A DNA stretch of 64,000 nt from assembly GCA_964531715.1 (NCBI GenBank), contig CAZHEE010000001.1:284573-348572 (forward strand), written 5' to 3'. Made by a program: the position numbers and the translations under genes. Origin of the DNA: an uncultured Micavibrio sp. GTDB taxonomy: Bacteria; Pseudomonadota; Alphaproteobacteria; Micavibrionales; UBA1664. The notes beneath the pieces are model-generated. The model was not told the origin of the DNA. It ran no database searches and saw only the letters and a list, made by a program, of their open reading frames with translations. Every line of letters begins with the position of its first letter. Within the stretch, counting starts at the first letter, position 1. Shown piece by piece: positions 8,475-61,942 of this stretch.

Positions 8475-8831
8475 ATGCTTATATTAATTATGTTATCAAA
8501 TTTGTCGCAAAAATTTTTAGCGGGAACCTGCGCTTTAGGTGCGGCAGTAGCCTATGGTTTATATGCGGGATATGCTGGTGAGCATTTTCATTGGGCTGTT
8601 AATGGCATTATTGGTGCATGCTTAGGTGTAATAGCTGCAACTTCATTTTTGCTTAGTCGATATAACGGTCAACGTAATCCTATTGCTTTTTTAGCTGTGA
8701 CCTATCCAGCATCAGGTTTTGGTGCAATGGCAATGGATGATGCTATCCGATTATTTGATGTCGACAATTTTACGGGTATAATTGAAACCGCAAGTGCTGC
8801 AGCGTCAAAAATTGCACTCGTTTTAAACTGA
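8475..8831 (+). CDS. Hypothetical small membrane protein
   Basis: 118-aa ORF with 2-3 hydrophobic helices. It fills the gap between flhA and dxs on the opposite strand, and its stop overlaps the dxs 3' end by 9 nt. No recognisable family. Confidence 0.4.
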
Positions 8832-10961
8832 CAAAACTTTCTCAACAATCGCTTTTGCATCCAGTTTTGCCTGTTCATATTGTTTTTCGGGTTTGTCCTG
8901 ATCCTGAAATATATCAGGCAGATGCATGGTGCGGATTTTTAAACCTTTATCCAGTAAACCGTCACGCGATAGAAATTCCAAAACGAATGACCCGAACCCG
9001 CCGATTGAGCCTTCCTCAATGGTAATAAGCGTTTTATGATTTTTGGCTAAATCGCGGATAAGCTCCTCATCTAAAGGTTTTGCAAATCGTGCATCGGCAA
9101 TTGTGACCAAAATATCTTTTGTTTCCAAAATCTTTGCTGCATCCAGACATTCTTGAAGCCTTGCGCCGTAAGAGAGTAAACAAATGTCACCCTTTGGTTT
9201 AACCAAAGGGTCTTGTTCTTTATCTTCAGAAGATCCTTTGGTCAAGCCAAAGGATGACGACTCATAAACTACCCGCCCTTTTCCTATGTCTAAAGCTTCT
9301 AGGGTCTCAGGAATATCAACGCCATAGCCATTGCCGCGTGGGAATCTGAATGCAATGGGTCCATCATTATAATTTGCGGCGGTGACTGTCATGCGTGCCA
9401 ATTCAGCCTCGTCGCTTGCTGCCATCAAAACCATGTTCGGCAGGCATCCCATATAGGCCGTGTCGAAACTGCCGGCATGGGTCGAACCATCCGCTCCGAC
9501 CAAACCCGCGCGGTCAATCGCAAACTTGACAGGTAAATTTTGAATACAGACATCATGCACCAGTTGGTCATACCCACGTTGTAAAAATGTTGAGTAAATC
9601 GCGCAAAATGGCTTCATGCCCTCGGTGGCCATCCCTGCGGCGAAAGTCACGGCATGTTGTTCGGCAATGCCGCAATCAAACATGCGGTCTGGGTAAACCC
9701 CGCCAAAAACATCCATGCCCGTACCGCCCGGCATTGCGGCAGTAATGCCGACAATTTTCGGGTCAGTTTCTGCCAGTTTGACAAGTGTATCGGCAAAAAC
9801 ACGCGTAAAGGACGGTGCATTGGCAATCGGCTTATTTTGCTTTCCTGTCACGACATCAAAGGTTGCAACGCCATGCATTTTGTCAGGCGCATGCTCGGCA
9901 GGGGCATAACCCTTGCCTTTTTGTGTGACAACATGAAGCAAAATCGGTTTATCTTGCTTTTTCGCATCACGGATATTGCGCAAGATGGGGAGGAGGTGAT
10001 CCATATTATGCCCGTCCACCGGCCCGATATAGTAAAAGCCCATTTCCTCAAACAAAGTGCCATGATTGCCAAACGCCACCCGGGCAGTTTCCTCGGCGCG
10101 CGCGGCTGCCTTTTGAAGGGCTTCGGGGAGGATACTCGCCGCTTTTTTCGCTAAATCACGGACATTGCGATAATGGTTGCCGCTCACCAATTTTGTTAAA
10201 TGACGGCTCATCGCGCCTGTTGGCGGGGCAATCGACATATCATTATCATTGAGAATAACAAGCATTCGCGCGTTCATGTCACCTGCGTTATTCATCGCCT
10301 CATACGCCATGCCCGCGGAAATTGCGCCATCACCGATAACGGCAATGACTTGATTATCAAAATTAACGTCATCCTGCGACTTGATCGCAGGATCTTTAAC
10401 GTCTTGGTGAAATCCTTTGGTTAAACCAAAGGATGACGCGTTTTGAATTTTTAAATCCCTCGCTACCGCCATGCCGAGCCCCGCAGATATCGAGGTTGAG
10501 CTATGCGCTGCACCGAACGGGTCATACGCACTCTCGGCACGTTTGGTAAATCCTGATAATCCACCACCCTTACGAATAGTTGTCATGCGGTCTTTGCGCG
10601 CTGTCAAAACTTTATGAGGGTAGCATTGGTGCCCGACATCCCAAATCAAGCGGTCATGCGGCGTATTAAAAACCGCATGAAGTGCGGTTGTTAATTCAAC
10701 GACGCCAAGCCCTGCACCCAGATGCCCACCCGTTTGTGCAACGCTTTCAATAACATACGCGCGTACCTCGTCGGCAAGTGTTTTGAGCTCCTTATCCGAT
10801 AAATCTTTCATATCATCAGGTATATTCACACGTGATAAAATCGTGTAAGGACTGTCACCCTTTGGCTTGACCAAAGGGTCTCCATCATTTGAAGCAAAAG
10901 ATCCTTTGGTCAAGCCAAAGGATGACGCATCACTATCAATTTTTTCAGCCATGTTTTTCAT
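8823..10961 (-). CDS. dxs: 1-deoxy-D-xylulose-5-phosphate synthase, carrying three in-frame repeat insertions
   Basis: 712-aa ORF with TPP and transketolase-like motifs ([48 protein letters not shown]). It lies downstream of ispA. It is longer than E. coli Dxs (620 aa), and the three ~25-aa insertions account for most of the excess. Confidence 0.95.
9186..9259. repeat. Palindromic mini-element copy (a) inside dxs
   Basis: Sequence is gtcaccctttggtttaaccaaagggtc...gatcctttggtcaagccaaaggatgacg, forming two hairpins. In the dxs frame it encodes [24 protein letters not shown]. Confidence 0.85.
10367..10438. repeat. Palindromic mini-element copy (b) inside dxs
   Basis: Sequence is cgtcatcctgcgacttgatcgcaggatc...aatcctttggttaaaccaaaggatgacg with inverted termini cgtcatcc/ggatgacg. 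It encodes [23 protein letters not shown] in frame. Confidence 0.85.
10854..10927. repeat. Palindromic mini-element copy (c) inside dxs
   Basis: Sequence is gtcaccctttggcttgaccaaagggtc...gatcctttggtcaagccaaaggatgacg. It encodes [24 protein letters not shown] near the Dxs N-terminus. Confidence 0.85.
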
Positions 10962-11583
10962 GATTATCTGTTGTAATCATTATGGGCAAAAAGTCACGAA
11001 AATTTTTATAGACATAAGGATTATTTTTGTTTATAAGTTTTTTATTATAAGAAATTTATGTATAGTATTTAGTTTGTTTGCTAATTCACCAGCTTTGGCA
11101 GATAATGCGAAAACTGAAACCTTTCTTGACCCCGATCGTCCTGCAAACAGCTCCAAAATAGTCCAACTCAATAGCTATATAGATGCGGAAAATTTACTTA
11201 CTAGAATTTGCAACCAAACGGTATGGCATGATGTCGGTAGCCCACAACATGATGCATGTGTAATGATAGTTGAGGCTTTACAAAAGTTTCCTAAATGTTT
11301 TAATTACAGCGACCTAGTTGGGAAAAATTTGCATAATTCTTATCCTTTCGATCGAGAATATCCAGGTTGGGAAGATCTTTGGCAAACTGTTATAAGCCAA
11401 CATGCATGCGCAGTTGAAAGGGCGGATGCCATTGCCGAAAGTATAATTGATTCTGACATGCCTGTTGATGATTTAGGGGTGGGTTATTTATCGAGTGTTT
11501 TTTCATATACTACAAATGTATATGGACTGAACGTATATGAGGAAATTAGATACATATTTGAGGCTCCTGTCGTCAGACGATAG
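10951..11583 (+). CDS. Hypothetical secreted protein (orphan)
   Basis: The ORF track begins at an upstream TTG (10867) inside dxs. The first in-frame ATG is at 10951. A signal-peptide-like stretch ([19 protein letters not shown]) is present. The gene is AT-rich and lies antisense between ispA and dxs. The start is uncertain. Confidence 0.45.
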
Positions 11584-17338: not shown

Positions 17339-18690
17339 TTACTATCAAGTTCTTTCCAGTGGTCTTGTATATTTTGTATCTGCCACGCATCCGTTAACTC
17401 ATAAAGCGGATAAGCCTTGTCAATGCGTTGACCATGGTCACGCGCGAATGGTTGAATATCAAATATTTGTTTGCTGTTAGCTGGCAGCCCTCGCAATTGA
17501 CCTAACGGCATTGCCAAACGTGCGCCCAAAATAAAGTTCGTATTTCTATTTTGATTCAATGATTTATTGCTTTGTGTTGAGAAAGTGGTGAAAGCTTCTG
17601 CTTGCCAGCCTGATGCAGGCTTGTAGAGGCTGCGTAGCTCAAAACCATAATCACCATCCAGAAAACGGCCTGCGCTTAACCCGTATGTCCAGCGACTGTG
17701 AGGTTTATCATACCAAAGATTAATCAGCGCGCTCGTTTGTTGATTGCTGTCATCAACCGTATAAATGGATTGACCGTAGGGCAGGCGTTTTTGCGTGCGC
17801 CAGACTTCACCACCGATGGCGAAGGCTTTGTCGAAAGGGCGATAAAGGATTTCGCCGCCAAACCCGTGAAACATTTCCTCTAAATAACCGACATGTGCTG
17901 CGACGTAAGTATCAGGGCGCGGTGTTACAAAACCGCTTAGCATGAATCGGTTCAGGTTAAAGCCTTGCCAGGCAAAGCCTAAAACATCTTGCCGTATCGG
18001 ATTTTGACGATCCAATATGCGTAAATCAGGCTCATCTTCAAGATTATCATAGAGATTATAACGGCTTGAAACAGTTAAAACGAAATAACCGCCGAAATGA
18101 TATCGGTTATTCAGGATAATATCACTGCGCACCAAAGGCGTTTCATCACTGTCATATAAGTCGATATGATGATAGAGCTCCAAATCCCATTCGCTTTTGT
18201 AACGGCGATCACATTTGAGCCGCTGCCCATGCCCGATGTTACTATTGTGATAGACTTCATTCACGCTTTTTGTTGGGGAGAGTGCGAGTTGTTCCAAGTC
18301 TGAACGCATAAAGCGTAAAGTCGGGCCTTTCAAGCCACTAAAATGCGGTTGAATGGCAATGATTTTATTGCTGTCATCCGTTTGATTAATTGCGATGCGG
18401 TTCGCCTTTGCAATATGACGCATCATTGGATTGTAGTCATGGGGATGTACAGTCAAACAGCCTTCAAGTGATTGCTGTCTGTCTTTAATACGGTTCAGGG
18501 CGCTATGCTCCTTAATAAAATCAAGGTCTGTCTTCTTCTCAGTTTTATCCAGATAAGAGGGAAGGTCTTGCTCAGTTTTAAATAAAAGCGTTTTAACAAA
18601 CCCAAAAGGTTTACTCGCCTTACTTTCAAACGGAAGAAAACTAAAGCTAACAGTAAGTAAGAAGAGCCAGACAAGGCGAACAAAAGCCAT
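17335..18690 (-). CDS. YjbH-family outer-membrane/exopolysaccharide-associated protein (tentative)
   Basis: 451-aa ORF with a signal peptide. The segment GYLEEMFHGFGGEILYRPFDKAFAIGGEVW matches my recollection of the YjbH family pattern. Confidence 0.5.
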   Translation of the reverse strand: MAFVRLVWLFLLTVSFSFLPFESKASKPFGFVKTLLFKTEQDLPSYLDKTEKKTDLDFIKEHSALNRIKDRQQSLEGCLTVHPHDYNPMMRHIAKANRIAINQTDDSNKIIAIQPHFSGLKGPTLRFMRSDLEQLALSPTKSVNEVYHNSNIGHGQRLKCDRRYKSEWDLELYHHIDLYDSDETPLVRSDIILNNRYHFGGYFVLTVSSRYNLYDNLEDEPDLRILDRQNPIRQDVLGFAWQGFNLNRFMLSGFVTPRPDTYVAAHVGYLEEMFHGFGGEILYRPFDKAFAIGGEVWRTQKRLPYGQSIYTVDDSNQQTSALINLWYDKPHSRWTYGLSAGRFLDGDYGFELRSLYKPASGWQAEAFTTFSTQSNKSLNQNRNTNFILGARLAMPLGQLRGLPANSKQIFDIQPFARDHGQRIDKAYPLYELTDAWQIQNIQDHWKELDSN

Positions 18691-29083: not shown

Positions 29084-29401
29084 CTACTTCCTCAAACACC
29101 CTTGATATTGCTCAGCTAAACGGCGGTTTTTTTCCTGCTCCATTTGCGCCTGATTATACCAACCTTCGGCCTTGCGTTTGAAGCTCATGGCTTGCTCGCG
29201 CCAATAGTCTTCGCGGCAGCTTGGGGCAGGCATTGATTGATCTTGTGCAAAAATATTTTCATTCATATCATTTATCACGGTCGTGACCTCACCATCACCT
29301 GCGGTGCGCGTTTTATAGGGCGTATCGTCATATGATTTCATGGTTGAGCATGCCTGTAACCCTAATACAGCCAATCCGATTAATGCTAATTTCAATGTCA
29401 T
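29084..29401 (-). CDS. Small lipoprotein (hypothetical)
   Basis: 105-aa ORF with a signal peptide and lipobox (LGLQAC). Its 3' 118 nt are duplicated at 41371-41488. Confidence 0.6.
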   Translation of the reverse strand: MTLKLALIGLAVLGLQACSTMKSYDDTPYKTRTAGDGEVTTVINDMNENIFAQDQSMPAPSCREDYWREQAMSFKRKAEGWYNQAQMEQEKNRRLAEQYQGCLRK

Positions 29402-33283: not shown

Positions 33284-33365
33284 GTCATCCCGAGCGAAGT
33301 GTAACGAAGTCGAGGGATCTCATTCATAGATTCCTCCGCTCACTATGGTTCGGTCGGAATGACAC
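33284..33365. repeat. MITE-like palindromic element (GTCATCCCGAGCGAAG type)
   Basis: Sequence is gtcatcccgagcgaagtg...cattcataga...ttcggtcggaatgac with imperfect terminal inverted repeats. It is related to the copy at 41278-41349. Confidence 0.75.
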
Positions 33366-41277: not shown

Positions 41278-41349
41278 GTCATCCCGAGCGAAGCCGAGGG
41301 ATCTTTTAAGTCTGAGATCTCTCCGCTCATTACATTCGGTCGAGATGAC
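41278..41349. repeat. MITE-like palindromic element (GTCATCCCGAGCGAAG type)
   Basis: Sequence is gtcatcccgagcgaagccgagggatc...ctccgctcattacattcggtcgagatgac. It shares termini and internal blocks with 33284-33365. Confidence 0.75.
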
Positions 41350-41370: not shown

Positions 41371-41488
41371 CTACTTCCGCAAACACCCTTGATATTGCCC
41401 AGCTAAACGGCGGTTTTTTTCCTGCTCCATTTGCGCCTGATTATACCAACCCTCGGCCTTGCGTTTGAAGCTCATGGCTTGCTCACGC
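41371..41488 (-). pseudogene. Truncated duplicate of the 3' end of the lipoprotein gene at 29084-29401
   Basis: About 118 nt align to 29084-29201 with 4 mismatches by my count, including the stop codon. No 5' part is present. Confidence 0.8.
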
Positions 41489-41600
41489 TATAAATCTTTG
41501 TTGACCATTCGGTATTTAAACACCCATAAAACGATAATAGGTCATTAATATGACATCATAATATCTTGTTTTAGTTAAGTTTATTTATTACATTAAGCAT

Positions 41601-47033: not shown

Positions 47034-47108
47034 GCTGCCGTAGCTCAGTGGTAGAGCGCACCCTTGGTAAGGGTGAGGCCGGGAGTTCAATTCTCCTCGG
47101 CAGCACCA
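47034..47108 (+). tRNA. tRNA-Thr (anticodon GGT), CCA encoded
   Basis: Hand-folded cloverleaf. The acceptor stem is GCTGCCG/CGGCAGC and the D stem is GCTC/GAGC. The anticodon stem is CACCC/GGGTG with loop TTGGTAA. The T stem is GGGAG/CTCCT with loop TTCAATT, followed by ACCA. Confidence 0.9.
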
Positions 47109-50315: not shown

Positions 50316-50523
50316 CGCAGAGTTTGAGAGTGCAAGGAGTTGTTTGTATAAATATTACGTCATTGCCTGAATCTCGATAGAGATTCTAAGGCAATCCATT
50401 TCATAGATTTTTAACATTTCTGGATTCCCTTAGAATTTGATAAATCAAATTTAGGAATGACGTATCTTTTTTTATTTAGAAACGACTATAGTAATTTAAC
50501 TCTTATAACTCCCTAACTCTGCG
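50316..50523. repeat. Composite repeat: 26-bp imperfect inverted repeats (CGCAGAGTT..GAGTT..GAGTT module) flanking an inner MITE
   Basis: 50316-50341 (cgcagagtttgagagtgcaaggagtt) compares with the reverse complement of 50498-50523 (cgcagagttagggagttataagagtt). The same module recurs at 51233-51258. Confidence 0.55.
50358..50462. repeat. MITE-like palindromic element (CGTCATTGCC...AGGAATGACG)
   Basis: Terminal inverted repeats cgtcattgcc / aggaatgacg, internal hairpins, and a ccatttcatagat core. Confidence 0.7.
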
Positions 50524-50550
50524 ATAAATCTGATTAAAAATCTCTGCCGC

Positions 50551-50587
50551 AAAATAAAAACCCGCATAAAGCGGGCTTTTTTTTATT
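50551..50587 (-). terminator. Rho-independent (bidirectional-looking) terminator of rplS
   Basis: cccgc-ataaa-gcggg is flanked by A-run and T-run sequence, about 20 nt after the rplS stop. Confidence 0.8.
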
Positions 50588-50604
50588 CTATGAATTTTTA
50601 GGAA

Positions 50605-51000
50605 TTACTTCTTTTTCTCTTCGCGTTTTTCGATACCGTGACCTGTTTTACGCTCTGCAATACGGGCGGATTTACCGCGACGGTCGCGCATATAGTAAAG
50701 CTTCGCACGGCGAACAGCACCGCGGCGAACCAGCTCAATCGACTCTAAACGCGGTGAGTATAGGGGAAATACACGCTCAACACCTTCACCATAGGAGATT
50801 TTACGAACCGTGAATGTTTCATTCATGCCGCCGCCATTACGGGCGATGCAAACACCTTCATAGGCCTGAACACGTTCGCGTGTTCCTTCCTTCACTTTCA
50901 CATTGACGCGCAGTGTGTCACCGGCGGAAAAGTCAGGGATATTTTTATCGGCAGAAAGCTGTTCAAGTTGCTTCGCCTCGAATTTCTGGAGAATATTCAT
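50605..51000 (-). CDS. rplS: 50S ribosomal protein L19
   Basis: 131-aa ORF with the pattern [30 protein letters not shown]...[16 protein letters not shown]. Confidence 0.95.
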
Positions 51001-51177
51001 CGTTTTAATCTTTCTTTTGTATAAGGCCCGAATTCCACGATGCAGGGATGAAACATAACATCACAGGCGGCCTGTTTTATCTTTAAAATTAACGGTTATG
51101 GCTTTATGCCTTATAATCATTACATTTTGCAAGGTATTTTTTACAGGAAGGCGCGAAGTCGCTAAGGTTTTACTCTT

Positions 51178-51332
51178 CGTCATTGCACATTTCATTCATG
51201 AATACGTGCAATCCAGATTATAACTTTTTAATCGCAGAGTTTTAGAGTTTTAAGAGTTTTGCCATCACTCCGTATGACCGCCCCTCCGTAAAATCATTTT
51301 TGCGGATTGCATGGTCAAGCCATGCAATGACG
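51178..51332. repeat. MITE-like palindromic element (CGTCATTGCA...TGCAATGACG)
   Basis: 10-bp terminal inverted repeats, hairpins at both ends, the acatttcattcatga core and an internal CGCAGAGTT module. It lies between rplS and trmD. Confidence 0.75.
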
Positions 51333-51393
51333 AATTTAAATAAAACCCTAACCTTTCTGTGAATGATTACTATAGTTATTTATAAACAGAAAG

Positions 51394-51508
51394 CGTCATT
51401 GCGAGGGAGCCCCCTGCCTTCGCAGAGGGCAGGCTTTGCGACCGCGGCAATCCATAGGATGTTAAAGATCGTATGGATTGCTTCGTCACTCCGTTCCTCG
51501 CAATGACG
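51394..51508. repeat. MITE-like palindromic element (CGTCATTGCGAGG...CCTCGCAATGACG)
   Basis: Perfect 13-bp terminal inverted repeats and internal hairpins (gccctctgcgaaggcaggg-type, ggcaatccata...tatggattgc). Confidence 0.85.
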
Positions 51509-52281: not shown

Positions 52282-52965
52282 ATGAGTGTAGTCCATAACC
52301 TTGAAGCTAATCTAGTCACAAATACACGAGACCAAGCAATAGATGTTTTCCAAAAAATTATAAGTGCGATACCAATAAACAAAAGAATTGTTCTTGCTGT
52401 ACAGGGGTCGGAGGCATGCGGGAAATCTTTGGCATCAGATAGTATGCTTCATTATTTGGATGATGATCGCAATCCAAAAGAAATTCCTAATGACGGAAAG
52501 TCAGTTTTAGAAAAGGAAAGTGGCGATGTTATGGGTAGGGCGCAAAGTGTTATTATATATCATAATGATGTTCTTGTCCGTTTTACTATAGCGAAAAATA
52601 TCAAAGATGTTGAAAATTTAGAAGAATTTGATGGGCCAGATATCATTGTATTTCTTCAATCATGGAAAACTGTTTTACCAGATAATTTGAAGCCAGATGT
52701 CGTTATAGAAATGAAAAACATTTCAAGTTTCCTTGAGGTTATTGCTACAAGTAATGGTAAACCAAGGCATGATGTTAAAAGAGGAATAAAAATTAACGTT
52801 CGAAATATTGATTTAGAAAGACACCTTTCACCAGTTTTGAAGCAATTACGCAGAGAATCCATAAGAAGAGAAAAAGGACTCCTTGCAGAAGTTTTTCATA
52901 TGCTTGGAGTATACGATCCAGACTTGTCACCTCCGCCTAGACAATTTCGGGTATTCGGACGGTGA
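52282..52965 (+). CDS. Orphan P-loop (Walker A) protein inserted antisense between trmD and rimM
   Basis: 227-aa ATG-initiated ORF in visibly AT-rich DNA with Walker A-like GSEACGKS. It is divergent from trmD (28-nt gap) and its 3' end overlaps the rimM 3' end by 29 nt. Confidence 0.5.
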   Translation: MSVVHNLEANLVTNTRDQAIDVFQKIISAIPINKRIVLAVQGSEACGKSLASDSMLHYLDDDRNPKEIPNDGKSVLEKESGDVMGRAQSVIIYHNDVLVRFTIAKNIKDVENLEEFDGPDIIVFLQSWKTVLPDNLKPDVVIEMKNISSFLEVIATSNGKPRHDVKRGIKINVRNIDLERHLSPVLKQLRRESIRREKGLLAEVFHMLGVYDPDLSPPPRQFRVFGR

Positions 52966-53446
52966 TTTTATGCTCAACATCCAAAACCGTATTCTCATCA
53001 TAAGACAGATAAAAGTTTTGACCTTGGGTTGGCTTAATATCGAGAAGGTCTCCCGCGCCGAAATTCTCCACTGCGGTGACAATGCCAACTTCATCGCCAT
53101 TCTCACTAACGCATAATTTGCCGATAAGATCGGTGAGGTAAATTTCATCGGCATCAGGTTCGGGCATTTGGTCGCGCTCAATATAAAGCTTCGTTCCTTT
53201 GAGTGCATCGGCGTCTTCTTTATTACTGACACCGACAATATGACCAAGCCATGTATCGCCTTTATGCCTATTTTTCATATGTATAATATAACTTTTTAAG
53301 TTTTTAAATAAGCTTGTGTCCTCAACAAAAACACGAATACGCACAAGGCCTTTAACCCCATGCGCACCCTTTATTTCCCCGATGAGAATGGCATCTCCCT
53401 CGCAAGAGTGATTATTATGGATATTGTCAGAAATACTGTGCATCAC
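52937..53446 (-). CDS. rimM: 16S rRNA processing protein RimM
   Basis: 169-aa ORF with the pattern IGEIKGAHGVKGLVRIRVF and a PRC-barrel C-terminus. It lies upstream of trmD as in the rpsP-rimM-trmD-rplS cluster. Confidence 0.85.
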   Translation of the reverse strand: MMHSISDNIHNNHSCEGDAILIGEIKGAHGVKGLVRIRVFVEDTSLFKNLKSYIIHMKNRHKGDTWLGHIVGVSNKEDADALKGTKLYIERDQMPEPDADEIYLTDLIGKLCVSENGDEVGIVTAVENFGAGDLLDIKPTQGQNFYLSYDENTVLDVEHKITVRIPEIV

Positions 53447-53643
53447 ATCTCTATATTATTAAAAACTTTTATTATTAAAATATAAAAAGCTTTAGCGTAT
53501 TTATATTCTGTATTCTTATAACATTGTATCTAAATTTAGGGACGACTGCTAACTTATTTAAAGTCAGGTATCAGTCCCATATATAATTCTGCTTATGTTT
53601 GAGGTTTTTTTCATAAGCCTAATTAAAATAAAAATGGCAGGTC

Positions 53644-53991
53644 ATGATTGACGCCGTGCGAACGGGTGCGTGCAAGCTTTCCCTCAAACCTGATCATGCT
53701 ATTGTGAATGAATATGAACCGGGGCAAGGCATTTCCGCGCGTGTCGATTGCGTACCCTGTTATGACGATACAATTGCCATCCTGAGCCTCGGCTCCAGTG
53801 CGGTCATGCAATTCATCAATTGTAACGAAATGCAGGAGAGCTATCTGGAGCCGCGCCGCCTGATCGTGCTCTCCGGCGAGGCGCGTTTTCGCTGGATGCA
53901 TGCGATCCCGGCCCGAAAACCCGATATGGTCGGCGGCTTTAAAATTGAGCGCAAACGGCGCGTTTCTCTCACCTTCCGAAAGATTATTTAA
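53644..53991 (+). pseudogene. AlkB-like 2OG-Fe(II) dioxygenase, C-terminal fragment
   Basis: 115 aa covers only the C-terminal half (VNEYEPGQGIS.RVD...RFRWMHAI...RVSLTFRKI). The first iron-ligand His of the HxD motif reads Arg (ARVD). E. coli AlkB is 216 aa. Confidence 0.55.
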
Positions 53992-54154
53992 GGTGCAGTA
54001 TATTGCCGCTTATAACCTATAATAAGCACGTTCGTGCATTTTAAAGCAGCACCCACCTATAAGACTGCATTCTTTATGGGAAACGGCTATCATAGAGCCA
54101 GCCATTTCTGGCTCTTCTTATATAATCCTTGCAAAATATACCAAGTTTGATATA

Positions 54155-54484
54155 ATGAATAAGTGGACTGTAGAAGTTTTAAATGAAACTGTGAGGGCAG
54201 AACTTAAAAGTTTGCCTGCTGATGTTAATGCGAAACTAAAGCATATCATTGAATTGATTGCGATATTTGGCCTTGAAAACGTCCACGAGCCTTACATCAA
54301 GCATATCGAGGGTAAAATCTGGGAAATGCGGATGAAAGGCAAAGATAATATAGGCCGCGCACTATATGTGACGGCAAAAGGCAAACGGGTTGTTATCCTG
54401 CATGCCTTTATTAAGAAGACACAAAAAACGCCAAATAAAGCCAAGAAACTGGCCCAACAGCGTCTTAAGGAGTTAAAAGAATGA
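54155..54484 (+). CDS. HigB/RelE-superfamily toxin (Gp49-like, DUF891 type)
   Basis: 109-aa ORF with the pattern K...L...G......P....I.GKIWEMR......R.LY......VILHAFIKKTQKTP. It has an ATGA overlap with the downstream HTH gene. Confidence 0.75.
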   Translation: MNKWTVEVLNETVRAELKSLPADVNAKLKHIIELIAIFGLENVHEPYIKHIEGKIWEMRMKGKDNIGRALYVTAKGKRVVILHAFIKKTQKTPNKAKKLAQQRLKELKE

Positions 54485-54774
54485 CCATACCTTTTGATAA
54501 AATTGCCAAAGAATGGGAAAAAGATCCAGAGTTTAGAAAAGCTTATAAAGAGCTTGAACCTGAATTCGCGCTCGCACGTTCTCTGATTGAAGCCCGCGTG
54601 CGTGCCGGGCTGACTCAAGGGGAGCTTGCAGATAAAATGGGAACCTCCCAGCCTTCTATCGCGCGCCTTGAAAGCGGCCATAAGCCAAGTCTCAAAACAT
54701 TGGAGCGCGTCGCGGAAATGACCGGGTCCAAATTGATGATTCAGCTGGTGCCACAAGACACGCAGCGCGCATAA
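54481..54774 (+). CDS. XRE-family HTH antitoxin (HigA-like)
   Basis: 97-aa ORF with the HTH GLTQGELADKMGTSQPSIARLESG. It is coupled to the toxin gene. Confidence 0.75.
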   Translation: MTIPFDKIAKEWEKDPEFRKAYKELEPEFALARSLIEARVRAGLTQGELADKMGTSQPSIARLESGHKPSLKTLERVAEMTGSKLMIQLVPQDTQRA

Positions 54775-54813
54775 ACAAAAGCCTCCTTAGTCTTAAATTT
54801 AAACTTACGGCGA

Positions 54814-55329
54814 CTAGAGGGCTTTATTTTGCCAGGGTCTGGGCGGGATGAGAGTGCCGGTGATGGGCGCGGCGTTATGATCCAGCATGACTGATTGCCA
54901 TGCTCCATCCCATTCGGCGGGAAGGTCATAGGACGGCTTGATGTCCCTCTCAGTTTCGAACCCATACCGGCCATAAAAATCCGGATCACCCAGGACACAG
55001 ACCTTTGCAATGCCACGCAGTTTCATTGCCTCAAACCCGCCCTGAATAAGCGCGCGGCCAATACCCTGACCTTGCCGGTCTGGCAAAACGCCCAGCGGCC
55101 CGAGCAGCCCGACTTGACCCGCGCTCCCCTCAACCGCGCAGAGTGTGAAAACCACATGACCGATAATCTCATCTCCCACTACCGCAACCAGCGATAAAAT
55201 ATCCTTGCCCTCATGCAGCAAATCCCGTACCAGCGGTTGTAAATTCTCCTCCGGGAATATCGCCGGATAGATACCAACAATCGCAGCGGCTTCTTCTGGC
55301 GTGCTTGGGCGGATGGAATATACGGTCAT
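54814..55329 (-). CDS. GNAT family N-acetyltransferase
   Basis: 171-aa ORF with the acetyl-CoA binding pattern LGVLPDRQGQGIGRALI. Confidence 0.8.
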   Translation of the reverse strand: MTVYSIRPSTPEEAAAIVGIYPAIFPEENLQPLVRDLLHEGKDILSLVAVVGDEIIGHVVFTLCAVEGSAGQVGLLGPLGVLPDRQGQGIGRALIQGGFEAMKLRGIAKVCVLGDPDFYGRYGFETERDIKPSYDLPAEWDGAWQSVMLDHNAAPITGTLIPPRPWQNKAL

Positions 55330-55338
55330 TTTTTCCTC

Positions 55339-56150
55339 TTAACAGCTTTCGTTGTCGGCAACACGGAATGCGTTTCGCATCATTCCTATTTCGCGGGAAG
55401 AGAATTTAAGCTCCTTTGCCAGCGCCTGCCACTCACGAACAGATGAAATGACTTCTTTTAGTATTGCATCTCTGCGCTCTTCAGAAATTCTGAAAATCTC
55501 CGCTATGCTTTTAAGCAGCACAATATCCTGGCTGTTATCTTCCCGTGAGATATATAGTGACAATCCGTTTCCAGTCGGAACAGGGTTCATATCATAGGCC
55601 GTTGAGAGCACCCAGCCCTGCGGCGTGAGTAGTCGACCTCGTCCTCGGCATGTTCTTGCTCCAGCTTTAAGCTTGCATGTTCAAGCACGCGCAGTTTTGT
55701 CCATGGCGGCGCAGCCATATCCGTATGATCGTCCAAAAAAGGGCCGTCATTCGTCAATCTAAAGCGCAGAGCGCCCATGCGGTGGCCGTCATAAACGCCG
55801 AGCAGGTAATCAGACTCCATAAGCGGGCGCATAGCGCGCTCTTCTGCCTTTGCCTTTTGGGCTTCGCGTCGCTGCATCAATACACGCCCCCAACGGTCCG
55901 GCGAAGAGTCCAGAAAAACACCGAAATTATCGCGGCTTTCTCTTGTGTATTGCGGCCCCTCAAACAAACCCAGCTCAGGGTCAAGAACTTGCGCATGTTT
56001 GGATTTTAACCAGGCCGGATCATACTCAAAAGAAAACACCTCTTTCCCTCTAACCGGTGCGGCATAAAGCGTTCCCATAAGCACAGGCTCATCCATGCCC
56101 ACCCAATGCGCGCAAACCTGAATCGCTTTTTGTATTTGTTTCTTGCTCAT
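55339..56150 (-). pseudogene. hipA: hipA-family toxin gene with internal deletion and frameshift
   Basis: The 187-aa ORF is the HipA N-terminal region (FLDSSPDRWGRVLMQRRE..DYLLGVYDGHRMGALRF). The 90-aa ORF in another frame is the extreme C-terminus (GWVLSTAYDMNP...). The P-loop and catalytic-loop segment between them is missing. E. coli HipA is 440 aa. Confidence 0.75.
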
Positions 56151-56170
56151 ACCATCACCTGCATGCTCGC

Positions 56171-56491
56171 TTATGTTTCTTTTTTGGGCGCGCGTTCTTT
56201 CGTATGTGTCAGCTCTGCATCTTGTAAGCGCCGTCCCAATGGGTCATCTTTTCCAAGAAATTGCAGGTCTTTTTCCAAACCCAGGCAGAACAAAACACTG
56301 GCATAGGCTCCCATCGTCACGCTGCTTTCGCCGTTTTCAATTTTGCGCAATGTTGCCCTGTTCATGCCCGCTCTTTCCGCAAGCATGGTTGTCGTGATTT
56401 TTCGGCGCAATCGCGCCAGCTTTATGTTCTCGCCCACCTCTTTGAGAATATCTTCAACAAAAGGCGGCAGGGCGGCTGTTTTTCTTGGCAT
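56171..56491 (-). CDS. HipB-like XRE-family HTH protein
   Basis: HTH TTTMLAERAGMNRATLRKIENGE. The ATG at 56491 (MPRKTA) is preferred. It ends 20 nt upstream of the hipA remnant. Confidence 0.7.
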   Translation of the reverse strand: MPRKTAALPPFVEDILKEVGENIKLARLRRKITTTMLAERAGMNRATLRKIENGESSVTMGAYASVLFCLGLEKDLQFLGKDDPLGRRLQDAELTHTKERAPKKET

Positions 56492-56632
56492 AGCAAACCT
56501 CTCAATGGTTATTATTATAACCACATAAATATTAAAATGTCTATAATAACTATCATTGATAAAATTTGAATTATAGCCTTATGATCTTTACAAAAGCTCC
56601 GGCGCATCCTCGTACAGAAAGGAAAGCGTCCC

Positions 56633-56683
56633 ATGAGAATAATTGCTTACAGCGATTTTCATCTGGAATTTATTGGGAACTAA
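56633..56683 (+). pseudogene. Metallophosphoesterase 5' fragment (16 codons)
   Basis: MRIIAYSDFHLEFIGN-stop. The MRI..SD.HLE start is typical of calcineurin-like phosphoesterases. Confidence 0.35.
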
Positions 56684-56686
56684 GAA

Positions 56687-56758
56687 TTACCCGAAGATAT
56701 TGACGGCGATCTCCGCCACATCTTCTGATGTGCTTGGGCGGATGGAATATGTGGTCAT
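56687..56758 (-). pseudogene. 5' fragment of a second GNAT gene (paralog of 54814-55329)
   Basis: MTTYSIRPSTSEDVAEIAVNIFG-stop compares with MTVYSIRPSTPEEAAAIVGIYP in the intact gene. The nucleotide block gtgcttgggcggatggaatat..ggtcat is shared. Confidence 0.6.
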
Positions 56759-56848
56759 GTTTTTTGCAACTTTCTTTATCCCTCCAACTGCCTTTTGATG
56801 TTAGCCTTCTTTAGTTGGCTTGGGAAACGGCGGCTTTGTCTGGAGATA

Positions 56849-57190
56849 TTAAAACTGCTTCAAAATCCATTGATGCAGGAAGTAGCCCGCGCCAAGGAGG
56901 GCAAGACCTAAAATCCAGCTTGGCCAGAAACCAAGGCTGAACTTATCGGTAAAGAAAAACGGTACGAAGAACAGCCACGTAATCGGCACAGCAAATATAA
57001 TGCTGCGCGCATATTGTGCGGTGTTTCCTGCATCACCATGCTGGGTGTAGGCAAAAGCAATCGCCATGATGGAAACAAGCGGCAGGGCTGTGATAAACCC
57101 TACCAACTCCGGCTTTTTACCCGCCAGCCATGACGCAAAAGCAATAACGAATGCGGCGATGCCAACTTTTAGAACGGTAATGAATTTGTT
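56849..57190 (-). CDS. Small multi-pass membrane protein, apparently lacking its original start
   Basis: The ORF track gives 85 aa from a TTG. The frame stays open upstream through another hydrophobic helix (KFITVLKVGIAAFVIAFASWLAG) with no ATG/GTG/TTG before it, and it runs into the recombinase remnant. Confidence 0.35.
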   Translation of the reverse strand, partial: NKFITVLKVGIAAFVIAFASWLAGKKPELVGFITALPLVSIMAIAFAYTQHGDAGNTAQYARSIIFAVPITWLFFVPFFFTDKFSLGFWPSWILGLALLGAGYFLHQWILKQF

Positions 57191-57194
57191 TTCC

Positions 57195-57847
57195 GCGGCC
57201 TGATTACCTGCGCCGCGACGGGCAAAGTCGTGACGGCGTCTGAGCAGAAAAAGACCTATAAAAACGGCGGTACGGCTTCATGGACGTATTTAAGATGCTG
57301 GAAGCCGGATAACCCCGAAAAGCAAATGTGGGTGCGCGAAGAGAAAGTGTTGGAGCAGGTTGAAGAAGTTTTGAAAAAGCTGGCCTGTGACGAAGAAACG
57401 CTGGCTTATCTCAACGGCTATTTACGGGAGATTGAGGAAAATGAGCGCGGCTTTTTACGCCGCCAGATTAGCGAGTGGCAAAAGCAGCATGCCAAGCTGC
57501 AAAATCGCCTTGATACGCTGATGGATTTATTGCTCGACGGCATGATTGAGCGCGAGGAATTCGAGGCCAAGAAATCAAAAATCCGTGAAGATCAGAGTTA
57601 TCTGGAGCAGCAAATTGCCAATGCCCGCTCCGGCGATGATGCGTTTAAGGATGCGATGCTCACGATCCTGTCCATCGCCTCGGAAGCGTATGATTTGTTC
57701 AAAGGTTCTAGCGTAGAGCTGAAAAGAGAGATGGTGAATCGGGTATTTGCGAACTTGAAGCTCGACGGCGGAAAGCTGCGCTATACTTTGCGTGAACCCT
57801 TCGACAAGATGCTGAATTTAACCAATCGTCTTGAATGGCAGGTGTAA
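57195..57847 (+). pseudogene. Large serine recombinase, C-terminal remnant only
   Basis: A zinc-ribbon-like segment with one Cys lost (GLITCAATGK...YLRC) is followed by the coiled-coil (LDTLMDLLLDGMIEREEFEAKKSKI). No N-terminal resolvase catalytic domain is present. Confidence 0.6.
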
Positions 57848-58005
57848 TTTAACAAAAAAAGAATAATTTTCTTTTTTATAGTCGTCAAACCGAACAATTA
57901 TAATTTTTGCATTTAACTTAAGGTTGTTGCATAGTAATGGCCTTGTTGCCCTATGGCCGGAAGCGGTAGCTATGTTCAGAACCTTTGGTTTAAAAACTAC
58001 TGACC

Positions 58006-58023
58006 ATTTACTGACGTTGTGGT
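58006..58023 (+). promoter_or_regulatory. Conserved motif ATTTACTGACGTTGTGGT, copy 1
   Basis: It is identical over 18 nt to 59050-59067. The flanking sequence (tatgttcagaacctttggt) weakly resembles the 5' end of the 58536-59036 gene. Confidence 0.45.
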
Positions 58024-58119
58024 ACGAAGTCTTCCGGTCACCAGCGCAAAAAAATAGCCCGTATTACTACGAACTATCAGGGTCATCAGTGACAATAATA
58101 TGGTCAGTAGAATTTTATA

Positions 58120-58512
58120 TTATGCCGCCATCGAGTTGTTTCTACGTTCAACTTCTGAGCAAATCTCGGCCATACGATTGAGGTTCCGCATCATTTTAAG
58201 AATGATGTCCATGCCCTCATCGGGTAATTGATCAATCTCAGCAGCGAGCCTCAAAATATTTGATGTTTTTTGTACGCTCTCGTCATCACCGTCACCATAA
58301 AAATACCCGACGGGTTTGCCCAAGGCCTTGGCACATAGGATCATCTTGTGCGCAGCCATGCTGCTGATGCCATTTTCGTATCGTTGCATTTGTTGCCCTG
58401 AAACACCGATCATTTGACCAAGGTCTTTTTGGGACAGTTTCAGGCGCTGACGTTCAATCATGATCTTTGATCCGATATCCCGCCTGTATTGTTTTTCTGT
58501 GTTTTCCATCAT
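58120..58512 (-). CDS. XRE-family HTH regulator
   Basis: HTH LSQKDLGQMIGVSGQQMQRYENG. The ATG at 58512 is preceded by AAGGAGG, whereas the ORF-track GTG start at 58527 lies inside that RBS. Confidence 0.75.
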   Translation of the reverse strand: MMENTEKQYRRDIGSKIMIERQRLKLSQKDLGQMIGVSGQQMQRYENGISSMAAHKMILCAKALGKPVGYFYGDGDDESVQKTSNILRLAAEIDQLPDEGMDIILKMMRNLNRMAEICSEVERRNNSMAA

Positions 58513-58535
58513 AACATCCTCCTTCACAATATCTG

Positions 58536-59036
58536 TTATGACGCTTTAGACTTGAACGTCGCGTTACTACATTCGATCCAGAAACGCTTATATAATGTGT
58601 AATAAGCTTTCTGCACCGCCCAATAAACATTCACCATGTCTTCACAATGTTGTTCAGCACGCGCCTGATCCAAATCAATCGCTGCCCCGTCTGTTTTATC
58701 GGAGCGGTTGGTGCGGACATCCTTAATGGATTCAAAAGCGATATTACGGACATAGGCCATCACATCACCCACCGCCATAATCGGCATCGCATCGACAAAG
58801 GTGTTTCCACGCAATCCCAACTTAACGATATCAACAATCTGTTGTGCCTGACCGGCATTCGATGCCTTTAATACAATATCGTAAAGGTGGGACAGCGTTT
58901 CATCACGCTTGGCTTGCATCTCTGCAAAGCTGTTGTCACCCATTTCATTATTGTTACATGATTGACGCATTGCCTTGGCGACAATAGCCCGGAATTTTTG
59001 AGACTTTCCTGTCTTGTTATATATTGCCATGTTCAT
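58536..59036 (-). CDS. Hypothetical protein (166 aa)
   Basis: ATG-initiated ORF immediately upstream of the XRE gene in an apparent two-gene operon. No family recognised. Confidence 0.5.
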   Translation of the reverse strand: MNMAIYNKTGKSQKFRAIVAKAMRQSCNNNEMGDNSFAEMQAKRDETLSHLYDIVLKASNAGQAQQIVDIVKLGLRGNTFVDAMPIMAVGDVMAYVRNIAFESIKDVRTNRSDKTDGAAIDLDQARAEQHCEDMVNVYWAVQKAYYTLYKRFWIECSNATFKSKAS

Positions 59037-59049
59037 TCCCCTTCTTGGT

Positions 59050-59067
59050 ATTTACTGACGTTGTGGT
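59050..59067 (+). promoter_or_regulatory. Conserved motif ATTTACTGACGTTGTGGT, copy 2
   Basis: It lies 14 nt upstream of the start of the 58536-59036 gene (minus strand). Confidence 0.45.
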
Positions 59068-59232
59068 TTCAAAAAAATCAGAGCACCTTGCCCTGATATC
59101 GATAAATATAAACATAATGTCTTAATGAAAAGTTAATAGTTGCTAATTAATATCAAAAATGATAGAATAAATTATATTTTGATAACTAATGTAAATGAAT
59201 GTTTACTTTTTGTAAAAATTGAGAAGATAAAA

Positions 59233-59874
59233 ATGAAAAATGGTAAACAATTAGTCGCAGCAAGAGGGCTCTTGGGATGGACACAAGATGACTTATCGAG
59301 ACAAAGCGATGTTGCAAAACCGACAATTATCCGGCTTGAAAATAATGAAGTCAGCCCCAATACGAATACAGTTAACAAGATTACTGCGGCTATTAATAAG
59401 GCTGGTGTGATTTTTACTGATAAAGGCGTCGAGTACACCGATAACAGAATAACTATCATTGAAAGTGACACTTGGTACTTAGAGCTTTTGGATGATGTTT
59501 TGTATACACTAGAAGGCCAAAAAAGAAATAAAGTATTGAGAACTTCATTTGCTGATGATCGGAAATCAACACAAGAAGGAATAGAGGCTTTAAGGAGACT
59601 TAAGAAGGCTGGCATTGAAAATCGCATTACATGCGAAAAAGGCAATACATTTCTCCTAGACCAGGTTTCCTCATATAGATGGGTTGAGCCTAAGAATTAT
59701 ACAAATTGGCTTACTCTTATATACGGCAACAAAGTAGCGGTTAGCATTAATAATGAAAAAGGATGCACAATAATTGACGATGCCGATTTTGCAAACGCAT
59801 GTCGATTACAATTTGACCTAACTTGGAATTTTTTAGAAACACCTACAAGGAGCACCGCAGATGTCCGACTATAA
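59233..59874 (+). CDS. HTH (XRE-type) protein with an uncharacterised C-terminal domain
   Basis: The ATG at 59233 is preceded by gagaag. The N-terminal HTH is LLGWTQDDLSRQSDVAKPTIIRLENNE, followed by a ~150-aa unknown domain. The gene overlaps the next gene by 14 nt. Confidence 0.6.
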   Translation: MKNGKQLVAARGLLGWTQDDLSRQSDVAKPTIIRLENNEVSPNTNTVNKITAAINKAGVIFTDKGVEYTDNRITIIESDTWYLELLDDVLYTLEGQKRNKVLRTSFADDRKSTQEGIEALRRLKKAGIENRITCEKGNTFLLDQVSSYRWVEPKNYTNWLTLIYGNKVAVSINNEKGCTIIDDADFANACRLQFDLTWNFLETPTRSTADVRL

Positions 59875-60502
59875 AGTTAAAGTATTATCTAACGCAAGTT
59901 GGAGAAATTATAAAAAGGCTCGCTTGGATATATCGCTTCAAAACACGAAACAAGTTGGAGAAAAATTTGAGGCAACTCTTTTATGGGCTTTAGAAAATTT
60001 TGATGAGATAGAAGTTTCTTTGGCAGATACACTACAAAGACATACTTTTTCTGCCGATTATGATATTCCATTGGATAAAGCCAATAATCTTACTTTGCGT
60101 GAAGGAGACATATGGATACAATGCCATAGTGACCTATTAACCCGTCACAACGTGGTAGTAAAAAGATGGGACGAGCGCATCCAAGATACGGCGTTTGAAT
60201 TTTTTCATAATCAAGTTAGAGAGCTCTATTCACAGGACAAAACATTCAAAGACCTCGTTAATAGCGATTGTCAATCTTTTATGAGTAGACGTAACTATTG
60301 TGAAACAAAAAAATTGTTTGTTTTAAATTATATTTTGGAAGAGCAGGCCGTATTCTCAATGCTATCAGAAAGAGACCAAGCTATAGGGATTTATCCTGGG
60401 TCAATTTTGGGATGCTATCGAGGACATGATCGACCAGATCTGTTCGCAAAGACAGAATTTTGCAAAATTGACTTTCTTAGAAAAAAGACAGCGGAGCTAT
60501 AA
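59861..60502 (+). CDS. Cyclodipeptide synthase (CDPS)-like protein, tentative
   Basis: 213-aa ORF with an AAGGAG RBS. By-eye alignment to recalled AlbC/YvmC sequences gives three matches. DISLQN...LLWALENF aligns with GIS.GN...LL.WA..F. RW.E....T.F......V...Y..D..F aligns with the mid-region pattern. LNYILEE aligns with the catalytic Y-x3-E, followed by IYPG / CYRG. Not verified by a search. Confidence 0.5.
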   Translation: MSDYKVKVLSNASWRNYKKARLDISLQNTKQVGEKFEATLLWALENFDEIEVSLADTLQRHTFSADYDIPLDKANNLTLREGDIWIQCHSDLLTRHNVVVKRWDERIQDTAFEFFHNQVRELYSQDKTFKDLVNSDCQSFMSRRNYCETKKLFVLNYILEEQAVFSMLSERDQAIGIYPGSILGCYRGHDRPDLFAKTEFCKIDFLRKKTAEL

Positions 60503-60651
60503 AAATTTCATCTCATGGGATTAATTCTAAATTCATGAACATGAGATTAGAATAATACAACTTAAGCGCAGTTTTTACTTGCAATTCAACCTTGAGAGAA
60601 GCGATGCTGACATTATAGCAGGGCAACAAGCATGCTTTAACTTCGGCAGAT

Positions 60652-60666
60652 ACAACGTCAGTAAAT
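60652..60666 (-). promoter_or_regulatory. Conserved motif, copy 3 (15 nt, inverted)
   Basis: acaacgtcagtaaat is the reverse complement of ATTTACTGACGTTGT. It sits about 95 nt upstream of the XRE gene at 60761, in the same orientation relative to its gene as copy 2. Confidence 0.4.
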
Positions 60667-60760
60667 AGCCGACCTGATCGATGAACCTGTGGAGAGGACT
60701 TGTCTCTTCCCCACTGACATACAGCACCCTCTTTCACGGGTTCATCTTTCTTTTATAAAC

Positions 60761-61201
60761 ATGAGAGATATAATGATCATGAATAAAAAAGTCGGTGCCA
60801 GTTCGCGCAATCGCAATATCACAATGGAACAGCATATTGGCAAACGCCTCGTTCTCGTTCGCACCGCCAATGAATTAAGCCGTGAAGCTCTGGCAGATGC
60901 ACTAGGAATTACACACCAACAAATCGGGAAATATGAACGCGGTGAAAATCGTATTTCAGCCTCAACACTTTATCAAATGATCAAATACTTTAAAGTTGAA
61001 CCGGATTTTTTCTATCAAGGCTACTCGGAAGAAGAAGTTGCAGCCACCATCACAACAATCGGACATATTACTCATTCCGGTGTGCGCGTCATGAATGAAA
61101 TAGGCAAAGGGAAAGATGCACAAATTCGTCAAAAAATTGCCAAGACCGTCATGCCAATCATAAAGGCTCTGAATTATTATTATGATGAGAAGGCAATTTG
61201 A
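60761..61201 (+). CDS. XRE-family HTH regulator
   Basis: HTH LSREALADALGITHQQIGKYERGEN. Candidate ATG starts are at 60761, 60773 and 60779, and the ORF-track start at 60689 is unlikely. Confidence 0.7.
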   Translation: MRDIMIMNKKVGASSRNRNITMEQHIGKRLVLVRTANELSREALADALGITHQQIGKYERGENRISASTLYQMIKYFKVEPDFFYQGYSEEEVAATITTIGHITHSGVRVMNEIGKGKDAQIRQKIAKTVMPIIKALNYYYDEKAI

Positions 61202-61927: not shown

Positions 61928-61942
61928 TCGAAAGATAAAACA

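Follow-up and report, generated by a model that had tools for sequence, protein, structure and literature searches.

In-frame CGTC-tagged REP pairs at three sites of the dxs gene of an uncultured Micavibrio

The gene dxs of an uncultured Micavibrio species was analysed within a 64,000-nt stretch of DNA (hereafter the window; assembly GCA_964531715.1, contig CAZHEE010000001.1, positions 284,573 to 348,572) and was found to carry three short palindromic elements inside its open reading frame (ORF), each of which is a head-to-head pair of CGTC- or TGTC-tagged repetitive extragenic palindromic sequences (REPs) and not a new type of element. The reading that we consider probable is that these REP pairs came to lie in the N-terminal tail and in two surface loops of Dxs, where they are tolerated in frame, and that their hairpins are kept at the level of the nucleic acid. 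Dxs is an essential enzyme that has been studied extensively as a drug target and that controls flux through the methylerythritol phosphate (MEP) pathway.

Structure, reading frame and host gene of the three elements

In the order in which the gene encodes them, the elements were named e3 (10853..10927, 75 nt; codons 12-37, site 1, the N-terminal tail), e2 (10367..10438, 72 nt; site 2 at codons 175-199, in the loop that precedes the GDG strand) and e1 (9185..9259, 75 nt; site 3 at codons 568-593, in the beta-hairpin turn with which domain III begins). A first-pass annotation had described three palindromic elements in frame in a dxs ORF without stops, and they were indeed found at the positions it gave, although each of its coordinate sets was short by one or two terminal tag bases. 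Each element consists of two perfect hairpins (9-10-bp stem, 3-5-nt loop) with 17-21 nt between the arms; all six arms form a perfect 9-bp stem with a 5-nt loop, and two of them can be extended to 10 bp with a 3-nt loop. From the outside inwards, every arm runs through tag, 9-bp stem, 5-nt loop, return stem and a short tail reading CTT, CTC, TTC or CTG, with the tags directed outward in all three elements (CGTC on four arms, TGTC on two). The outer termini are TGTCACCC or CGTCATCC at one end and GGATGACG at the other. In e3 the arms are TGTC-ACCCTTTGG-CTTGA-CCAAAGGGT and, on the other strand, CGTC-ATCCTTTGG-CTTGA-CCAAAGGAT; the heterodimer e2 combines CGTC-ATCCTGCGA-CTTGA-TCGCAGGAT with CGTC-ATCCTTTGG-TTTAA-CCAAAGGAT; and e1 combines TGTC-ACCCTTTGG-TTTAA-CCAAAGGGT with CGTC-ATCCTTTGG-CTTGA-CCAAAGGAT. 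Stems start with AT in four arms and with AC in the remaining two, in which a compensating G stands opposite. The motif CCTTTGGYYWARCCAAAGG gave 10 strand-hits in the 64-kb window, corresponding to five hairpins that are all in dxs, against 0 in shuffles of the window; the left arm of e2, which makes up the sixth hairpin, varies from the motif by compensated changes (CCTGCGA...TCGCAGG). The element hairpins fold stably, at -19 to -29 kcal/mol with z scores between -5.6 and -7.9 (the e3 DNA fold has -28.8 kcal/mol, z = -7.9), and a covariance model scored the elements at 84.7 (e3), 81.7 (e2) and 83.5 bits (e1). Elements e1 and e3 are mutual closest relatives (84%), both with an ACCC...GGGT stem variant, which makes local copying possible, and e2, together with its spacer, shares 91% identity with an intergenic copy (L015) in an uncultured Micavibrio metagenome-assembled genome.

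The ORF that holds the elements (8823..10961, (-) strand, 712 aa), defined by its open frame and by Dxs homology, is intact; its start is placed at codon 4 by NCBI, which gives 709 aa. The product is 100% identical to database protein P0001, has Dxs homologues numbering thousands in a database search, matches Dxs chains in the PDB (E about 1e-209 to 1e-171) and retains every column that is invariant across 93 Dxs sequences, the GDG motif included. The identical 712-aa protein was present in two independent public sources, an NCBI contig of 355 kb and a JGI contig of 296 kb, which excludes a one-off assembly error. The closest insert-free orthologue, P0003 (637 aa), is 79-84% identical, shares the gene order ispA-dxs-flhA and has none of the three inserts. 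The difference in length between the two proteins is 75 aa, or 3 x 25, so that the inserts account for the whole excess over this orthologue. Another close orthologue, P0002, carries REPs of other families at sites 1 and 3. An insert-free P0003 and a P0002 with different palindromes argue for insertion and not for ancestral sequence.

Six-frame translation of the elements gave one stop-free frame per strand, and the peptide of this frame (S-S/P-F-G-L-T-K-G ...) is alike on both strands because of the two-fold symmetry of the element. Intergenic copies measured 71-76 nt, with one tag base per end added, and most of these lengths are not divisible by three; for copies within dxs genes, the four lengths determined were 72 or 75 nt. 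The single open frame and the length pattern together indicate that the peptide shared by the inserts is the survivor of a frame-and-length filter and not a protein motif. The peptide is accordingly no evidence of a protein-level feature, as it is the only stop-free frame that the element has on either strand, and in annotation the 25-residue inserts should not be taken as Dxs-specific domains. A 238-aa ORF opposite the dxs start (10867-11583, (+) strand; no Pfam match) has its start within e3, whose opposite strand is open too, and at least the e3-encoded start of this ORF looks like an artefact of the element's open frame.

Insertion sites in Dxs and their reuse among orthologues

In the protein, e3 is located in an unconserved N-terminal tail, upstream of the conserved ILSRVN segment; e2 falls between ARDLK and VIAVIGDG, at about residues 142-144 of Escherichia coli Dxs, in the loop before the GDG strand; and e1 occupies a beta-hairpin turn (GKGRVV...ICLLSYG) at the start of the C-terminal domain, at about E. 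coli residues 499-503. In an AlphaFold2 model of Dxs built on 93 sequences, the predicted local distance difference test score (pLDDT) was about 50 or lower at all three inserts, with a confident flanking core: below 50 for e3 (residues 15-36), approximately 49-51 for e2 over residues 181-200 (below 50 at 183-185 and 194-198), and approximately 50 for e1, between strands E563-567 and E592-598. Dxs has a non-conserved disordered loop that is invisible in crystals and follows GDG/NDN (aa 190-234 in Mycobacterium tuberculosis DXPS; PMC9068908), and a low-confidence stretch of the model at approximately 244-300 is what we take to be its counterpart. The second insert had been assigned to this disordered linker in the first-pass annotation, but e2 is distinct from the 244-300 stretch and precedes the GDG strand which the disordered loop follows, so this placement was wrong. 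None of the three inserts occupies the known disordered loop of Dxs.

The 120 best Dxs homologues were aligned and 118 of these were scored for inserts, defined as at least 15 extra residues. Segments of at least 8 extra residues were confined to the termini and to two internal positions, sites 2 and 3, with the one exception of P0036, a homologue of 743 aa on a 2.5-kb contig in which a 105-residue segment of the N-terminal domain is internally duplicated; this duplication may be an assembly artefact. Inserts at one or more sites were present in 50 of the 118 orthologues, all at the three positions used in the window dxs: at site 1 in 14/118 (minimum 12 state changes), at site 2 in 15/118 (minimum 15) and at site 3 in 44/118 (minimum 21). 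Summed over the three sites, a neighbour-joining tree built from the core alignment requires a minimum of 48 gains or losses, and insert-bearing and insert-free states are interleaved on it.

The inserted peptides vary by lineage, for example CHPERSEGS..., LPRESGD...DSRLRG and ...DCHVADAPRND, and from their sequences they look like translated REPs of several families. Internal inserts ended in N/D-D, which is the ATGAC tag read in one frame, in 47% of cases vs 9% of control segments. Where the DNA of insert-bearing orthologues was inspected (four genes), the inserts were all (C/T)GTCAT...ATGAC(A/G) pairs, most of them folding much better than shuffles. In the dxs gene of P0031 (L038:3001-5175), sites 2 and 3 are both occupied by one REP pair in nearly identical copies that agree in the spacer as well (CHPEQREGS..KHKDSSAAPQND), and a remnant arm (NHPEIS) is found directly upstream of its site-3 copy. 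Across lineages the position within each loop shifts by several codons, which points to permissive loops rather than to one exact target sequence. A native GTCAT/ATGAC motif near sites 2 and 3 was considered as a targeting cue and dropped, such 5-mers being too frequent by chance on a rough estimate.

That different REP families repeatedly occupy these three Dxs positions, in a large group of uncultured alphaproteobacteria, is not described in the REP literature cited here, and dxs is absent from the published target genes in the supplementary lists of PMC3733652. The recurrence provides a natural map of permissive insertion sites, in which the classical disordered loop is never used, and the replicated events offer material for distinguishing targeted insertion of REPs from filtering alone.

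Related repeats and Ssn-type nuclease genes

A hairpin pattern given by the right arm was scanned over one representative genome per species and, in a second scan, over metagenome contigs. The same two-arm element was recovered from several uncultured alphaproteobacteria labelled Micavibrio, Rickettsiales or Alphaproteobacteria, mostly between genes, so that copies beyond dxs, for which a consensus search had been proposed, do exist as intergenic two-hairpin elements in other alphaproteobacterial genomes. Across 18 aligned copies (three from dxs and 15 from other genomes) the arms were conserved, the spacers variable (approximately 17-25 nt) and the tags outward. The two-hairpin structure paired in all 324 of 324 cells, with six pairs changed on both sides, a result reached by 0 of 500 shuffles; as the right arm had served as the search pattern, only the left-arm covariation is independent evidence. 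A single long hairpin formed between the arms was also tried and was rejected, since it had no covariation beyond that of shuffles.

In-frame copies of the family were also found outside this gene, in the N-terminal domain of an M17 aminopeptidase (L045:8971-10404(-)), in an N-terminal extension of a UDG-family protein (L042:414-1214(+)), in a 63-aa DUF1674 protein (P0121) and at site 3 of another Dxs (L036). When the e3 peptide was run with HMMER against 1.84 billion representative proteins, two matches were returned, both unrelated, and no further hosts, from which invasion of proteins by this family appears to be rare. A profile of the tandem-duplicated peptide returned P0121 only and failed to recover P0001, which indicates a low sensitivity of that search.

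In Neisseria, a single-domain GIY-YIG protein of 94 aa, SsnA, binds the repeat CGTCATTCCCGCG...CGCGGGAATC in single-stranded form and cuts it, and ssn-family genes typically stand between hairpins of their own (PMC11893778). SsnA has been shown to restrict transforming DNA that carries such hairpins in Neisseria, not to mobilise repeats, and NTS copies are rarely intragenic (2% in N. meningitidis; PMC11893778). For the hairpin of the dxs elements, a corresponding arrangement was found in a metagenome contig (L044; Ga0115567_10035633, 1511-1906) in the order ispH, CCGTCATCCTTTGGCTTGACCAAAGGATC, a 100-aa GIY-YIG gene, GATCCTTTGGTCAAGCCAAAGGATGACGG and rnhA, with the exact dxs-element arm ATCCTTTGG-TCAAG-CCAAAGGAT-GACG on both sides of the GIY-YIG gene and the tags outward. 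The encoded protein matches PF01541 (E = 2.8e-15), and the spacing of its Tyr10, Tyr21 and Glu68 (11 and 47) equals that of Y6, Y17 and E64 in SsnA. At three other loci picked by the hairpin pattern alone (L016, L021 and L028), an Ssn-like gene was situated at most 100 bp from the same hairpin. In two relatives, GIY-YIG genes of 95-97 aa were observed near dxs (L034:14537-14824 and 17339-17632; L037:12799-13089), bracketed by CGTC-type hairpins with other stems such as ATCCCCGA-CTTGA-TCGGGGAT.

Given that the exact hairpin flanks Ssn-like genes elsewhere, the head-to-head pairs look, by analogy, like gene-less miniature derivatives of hairpin-nuclease-hairpin units, and the pair geometry suggests an origin of the kind that relates a miniature inverted-repeat transposable element (MITE) to its insertion sequence. 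To our knowledge, CGTC-tagged REPs had no known dedicated partner protein until 2025, and the Ssn-type GIY-YIG nucleases whose genes this hairpin flanks in other genomes are candidates for that role. The association of this particular hairpin with Ssn-like genes is new relative to the cited REP and Ssn literature.

Within the window, an unfiltered covariance model returned the three dxs copies at 82-85 bits, one degenerate copy, and weak matches that represent other REP families. The degenerate copy is a pair of the same family as the dxs elements in the rplS-trmD spacer (51261..51331; 25.2 bits, E = 3e-5); in the right arm of this copy (51306-51331), CGTC-ATTGCATGG-CTTGA-CCATGCAAT, the hairpin is perfect and the stem covaries throughout. 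The other intergenic pairs, obtained from the covariance model together with a tag-pair search, are a TGTC-tagged pair of another family (GTCATCCCGAGCGAAG...GGAATGAC) at 33284..33363; a TGTC-tagged pair of this same family at 41278..41349; and a pair of a third family (GTCATTGCC...GGAATGAC) at 50359..50461 and a CGTC-tagged pair of a fourth family (CGTCATTGCGAGG...CTCGCAATGAC) at 51395..51507. The total for the window is therefore at least five intergenic CGTC/TGTC pairs, four of them of other families, plus the three in dxs, and no gene besides dxs carries a REP pair within these 64 kb. The rplS-trmD spacer (50359-51507) is packed with REP pairs of three CGTC/TGTC families, which yield spurious small ORFs with peptides such as VIARN...KQSI and WIASSLRSSQ. 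An Rfam scan of the window returned tRNA only.

Two further features of the window were noted. A 128-nt repeat, 94% identical, occurs at 29084-29211, where it appears to form the 3' end of a small lipoprotein-like ORF on the (-) strand, and at 41371-41498, where it reads as an isolated 3' gene fragment about 20 nt from the REP pair at 41278-41349. The stretch 52282-62000 contains short ORFs, mostly without a Pfam match, together with two HTH_3 proteins, and may be a mobile or prophage-like island; a tRNA gene (47034-47105) is located upstream of it.

Proposed mechanism, alternatives and comparison with known systems

The most likely course of events is that CGTC-tagged REP pairs spread within and between alphaproteobacterial genomes, and that they reached dxs probably more than once, possibly by local copying. 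Copies with a length divisible by three, an open frame and a position in the tail or a surface loop would have escaped removal by selection. The inserts are most likely translated, as hydrophilic and disordered loops of approximately 25 residues that the enzyme tolerates, and the hairpins would have stayed perfect through a constraint on the nucleic acid rather than on the protein, most plausibly recognition by a small Ssn-type GIY-YIG single-strand nuclease. Translation of the inserts, their near-neutrality, and the mobilisation or maintenance of the repeats by a nuclease in the source genome are what we infer from these patterns.

Several observations weigh against this reading. No GIY-YIG or Ssn-like gene was found in the 64-kb window by tblastn with three GIY-YIG proteins, and Pfam scans of approximately 50 window ORFs returned neither a nuclease nor a transposase. 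The published search string for Ssn-related motifs (SRM), HGTCWYN(0-2)YYVSBRHN(0-5)WNVSBRGN(0-2)RNCYNB, is matched by one of the six arms (10367-10397, the left arm of e2), the CCTTTGG arms missing it at a single position, with T where V is required; the string was accordingly dropped as a membership test for the dxs elements. Taken together, the missing ssn gene and the single SRM match mean that the link to a nuclease is established for the hairpin sequence and not for this genome. At the dxs sites, no target-site duplication, conserved flanking DNA or clean empty-site junction could be defined. The presence of three of the eight REP pairs of the window in one 2.1-kb gene, which makes up 3.3% of the window (binomial estimate about 2e-3), is not obviously explained by a pure tolerance filter, and such a filter also leaves unexplained that a Tyr or His residue tracks the insert at site 3. 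Finally, e3 may be part of the mRNA leader instead of the coding sequence.

The Tyr/His association concerns the residue that follows GKGR(I/V)(I/V), which is Tyr or His in 51/57 alleles with extra site-3 residues vs 1/63 short alleles, and Arg, Lys or Gln in 60/63 short alleles; in the window Dxs it is Tyr (residue 566, after GKGRVV). In the DNA that leads from this residue to the REP tag, only TAY is shared. The association could reflect either convergence after insertion or an old insert-bearing allele with overwritten REP content. Under the latter explanation the inserts, at least those at site 3, would go back to one old insertion that produced a longer-turn allele (...VY-x-S/T...KGD...), whose REP content was repeatedly overwritten by whichever family was active, with short alleles returning via homologous recombination. 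Besides the strength of the association itself, the remnant arms upstream of complete pairs in P0031 and in P0079 (NHPT in the latter) and the existence of alleles of intermediate length would fit such a history. However, the states are interleaved on the tree, with a minimum of 19 changes for Tyr/His beside the 21 for the insert; recombination was rejected as the cause of the association, identity by region showing no signal of it; and the path from Arg through His to Tyr (CGY to CAY to TAY) requires two transitions only, so that convergence is possible. A single old allele is for us a possible but rather doubtful account, and it bears on history only, leaving the identity of the elements unaffected. 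The proposal that e3 is outside the protein, as a REP pair in a 5' leader with translation starting downstream, for instance at the TTG of codon 30, is one that we would take seriously without expecting it to prove correct. A GGAG is positioned 5 nt upstream of this TTG, no obvious Shine-Dalgarno sequence precedes ATG1 or ATG4, orthologues have a median of 19 residues in the unconserved tail ahead of ILSRVN, and a published caution that REPs annotated at ORF N termini may belong to the 5' leader (PMC3733652) applies here. Conversely, the frame is open from ATG1 through e3, though one in three element frames is open; two annotation pipelines include e3, though both favour long ORFs; and the candidate TTG sits within a stable hairpin.

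The enrichment in dxs and the reuse of its three sites (50 of 118 orthologues, a minimum of 48 gains or losses) could also be read as positive selection on hairpins recruited to tune mRNA stability or translation, or to act as single-stranded DNA cleavage sites that limit the recombination of incoming DNA at this gene. Stems that are perfect while spacers have diverged, the stability of the hairpins and the published SsnA-dependent restriction of hairpin-bearing transforming DNA in Neisseria (PMC11893778) are compatible with such a role. Many close orthologues nevertheless have no insert at all, and REP families differ by lineage and loop positions vary, for which a filter at permissive sites is the better fit; a recruited function would explain the enrichment, yet is not needed, and we consider it quite improbable. 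Hardly any likelihood attaches to the proposal of lineage-specific loops of low complexity that arose by evolution in place, or of a dxs that is an assembly artefact or a pseudogene in decay. The inserts are hydrophilic, with predicted disorder, and the source is a metagenome-assembled genome, but the insert DNA is perfectly palindromic with tagged termini, near-identical elements are intergenic in other genomes (as with e2 and L015), the ORF is intact with its invariant residues all retained, and two independent assemblies hold the same protein. Insertion of REP pairs followed by filtering for tolerance thus remains the reading that we prefer. An extension of it, put forward as a long shot, is that the pairs are mobilised by an Ssn nuclease and that they preferentially land or are retained at the Dxs sites, either because single-stranded DNA structure is targeted or because the hairpins give dxs a selectable property. 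If true, this would supply the missing mobilisation mechanism for CGTC-tagged REPs together with a natural series of at least 48 independent events. Both the site recurrence and the Ssn-flanking hairpin merit a brief follow-up.

This type of element and its organisation as dimers have been described before, as have occasional in-frame copies, CGTC-tagged REPs inside genes having been catalogued in 2013. CGTC-tagged REPs are defined by an unpaired terminal CGTC, with TGTC and CCTC variants allowed, at one end of a stem-loop; the stem has 8-9 bp and nearly always starts with A then T, the loop has 4-5 nt, and an unpaired 3-nt tail mostly fits CCA (PMC3733652). They make up dispersed, mostly intergenic families with many copies per genome, predominate in Alphaproteobacteria, Micavibrio included, often form head-to-head dimers (homodimers as well as heterodimers) with the tags outside and spacers of 20-100 bp, and are sometimes intragenic, in which case dimers encode 20-30 aa and some ORFs are inserted twice (PMC3733652; Di Nocera et al. 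2013). The dxs elements agree with this description in their terminal CGTC or TGTC tag, 9-bp stem and 5-nt loop, in their organisation as head-to-head dimers with spacers of approximately 20 nt, of which e2 is a heterodimer, and in having in-frame copies in genes. They differ in that two arms begin with AC instead of AT and in having a CT- tail against the published CCA; as CCA fits only most of the published tails, the CT- tail marks a variant and does not exclude the elements. Their stem (ATCCTTTGG or ACCCTTTGG) and CT- tail could not be assigned to any one of the four published CGTC-tagged REP families, and three pairs in one gene are more than the two insertions published for some ORFs.

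In-frame palindromic repeats in proteins have been known since work on Rickettsia, and RPE-1, one of the Rickettsia palindromic elements (RPEs), has a length of about 100-150 bp. The RPEs were reportedly described by Ogata et al. in Science in 2000. Like RPEs, the dxs elements are small palindromes, dispersed and lying in frame within alphaproteobacterial coding sequence, where they add surface peptides to an otherwise conserved protein, and the likeness that the first-pass annotation had drawn on this point was upheld. Its view of the elements as a unit distinct from RPEs was not, because the defining features of CGTC-tagged REPs are present and that superfamily includes RPE-4 and RPE-6 of R. 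conorii (PMC3733652). The host is not Rickettsia, however, the elements are shorter than RPE-1, and the link to RPEs rests on the in-frame behaviour and on the CGTC tag of RPE-4 and RPE-6, not on similarity of consensus.

A further parallel is found in REPINs and the REP-associated tyrosine transposases (RAYT), in which two inverted REPs with a short spacer likewise form a multiplying, non-autonomous unit that depends on a domesticated nuclease-like gene, present in one copy and bordered by these repeats. The tag there is GTAG, in contrast to CGTC or TGTC here; a tyrosine (Y1) transposase of the IS200/IS605 type was not found among the approximately 50 window ORFs scanned with Pfam; and the covariation in the dxs-element family favours two separate hairpins over one long hairpin between the arms. 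With the NTS/SRM repeats of the SsnA system, the dxs elements share a hairpin with a CGTC-containing 5' flank and, in another genome (L044), the flanking by this hairpin of a single-domain GIY-YIG gene of approximately 100 aa, although the 64-kb window around the dxs elements, unlike the NTS/SsnA case, holds no such nuclease gene.

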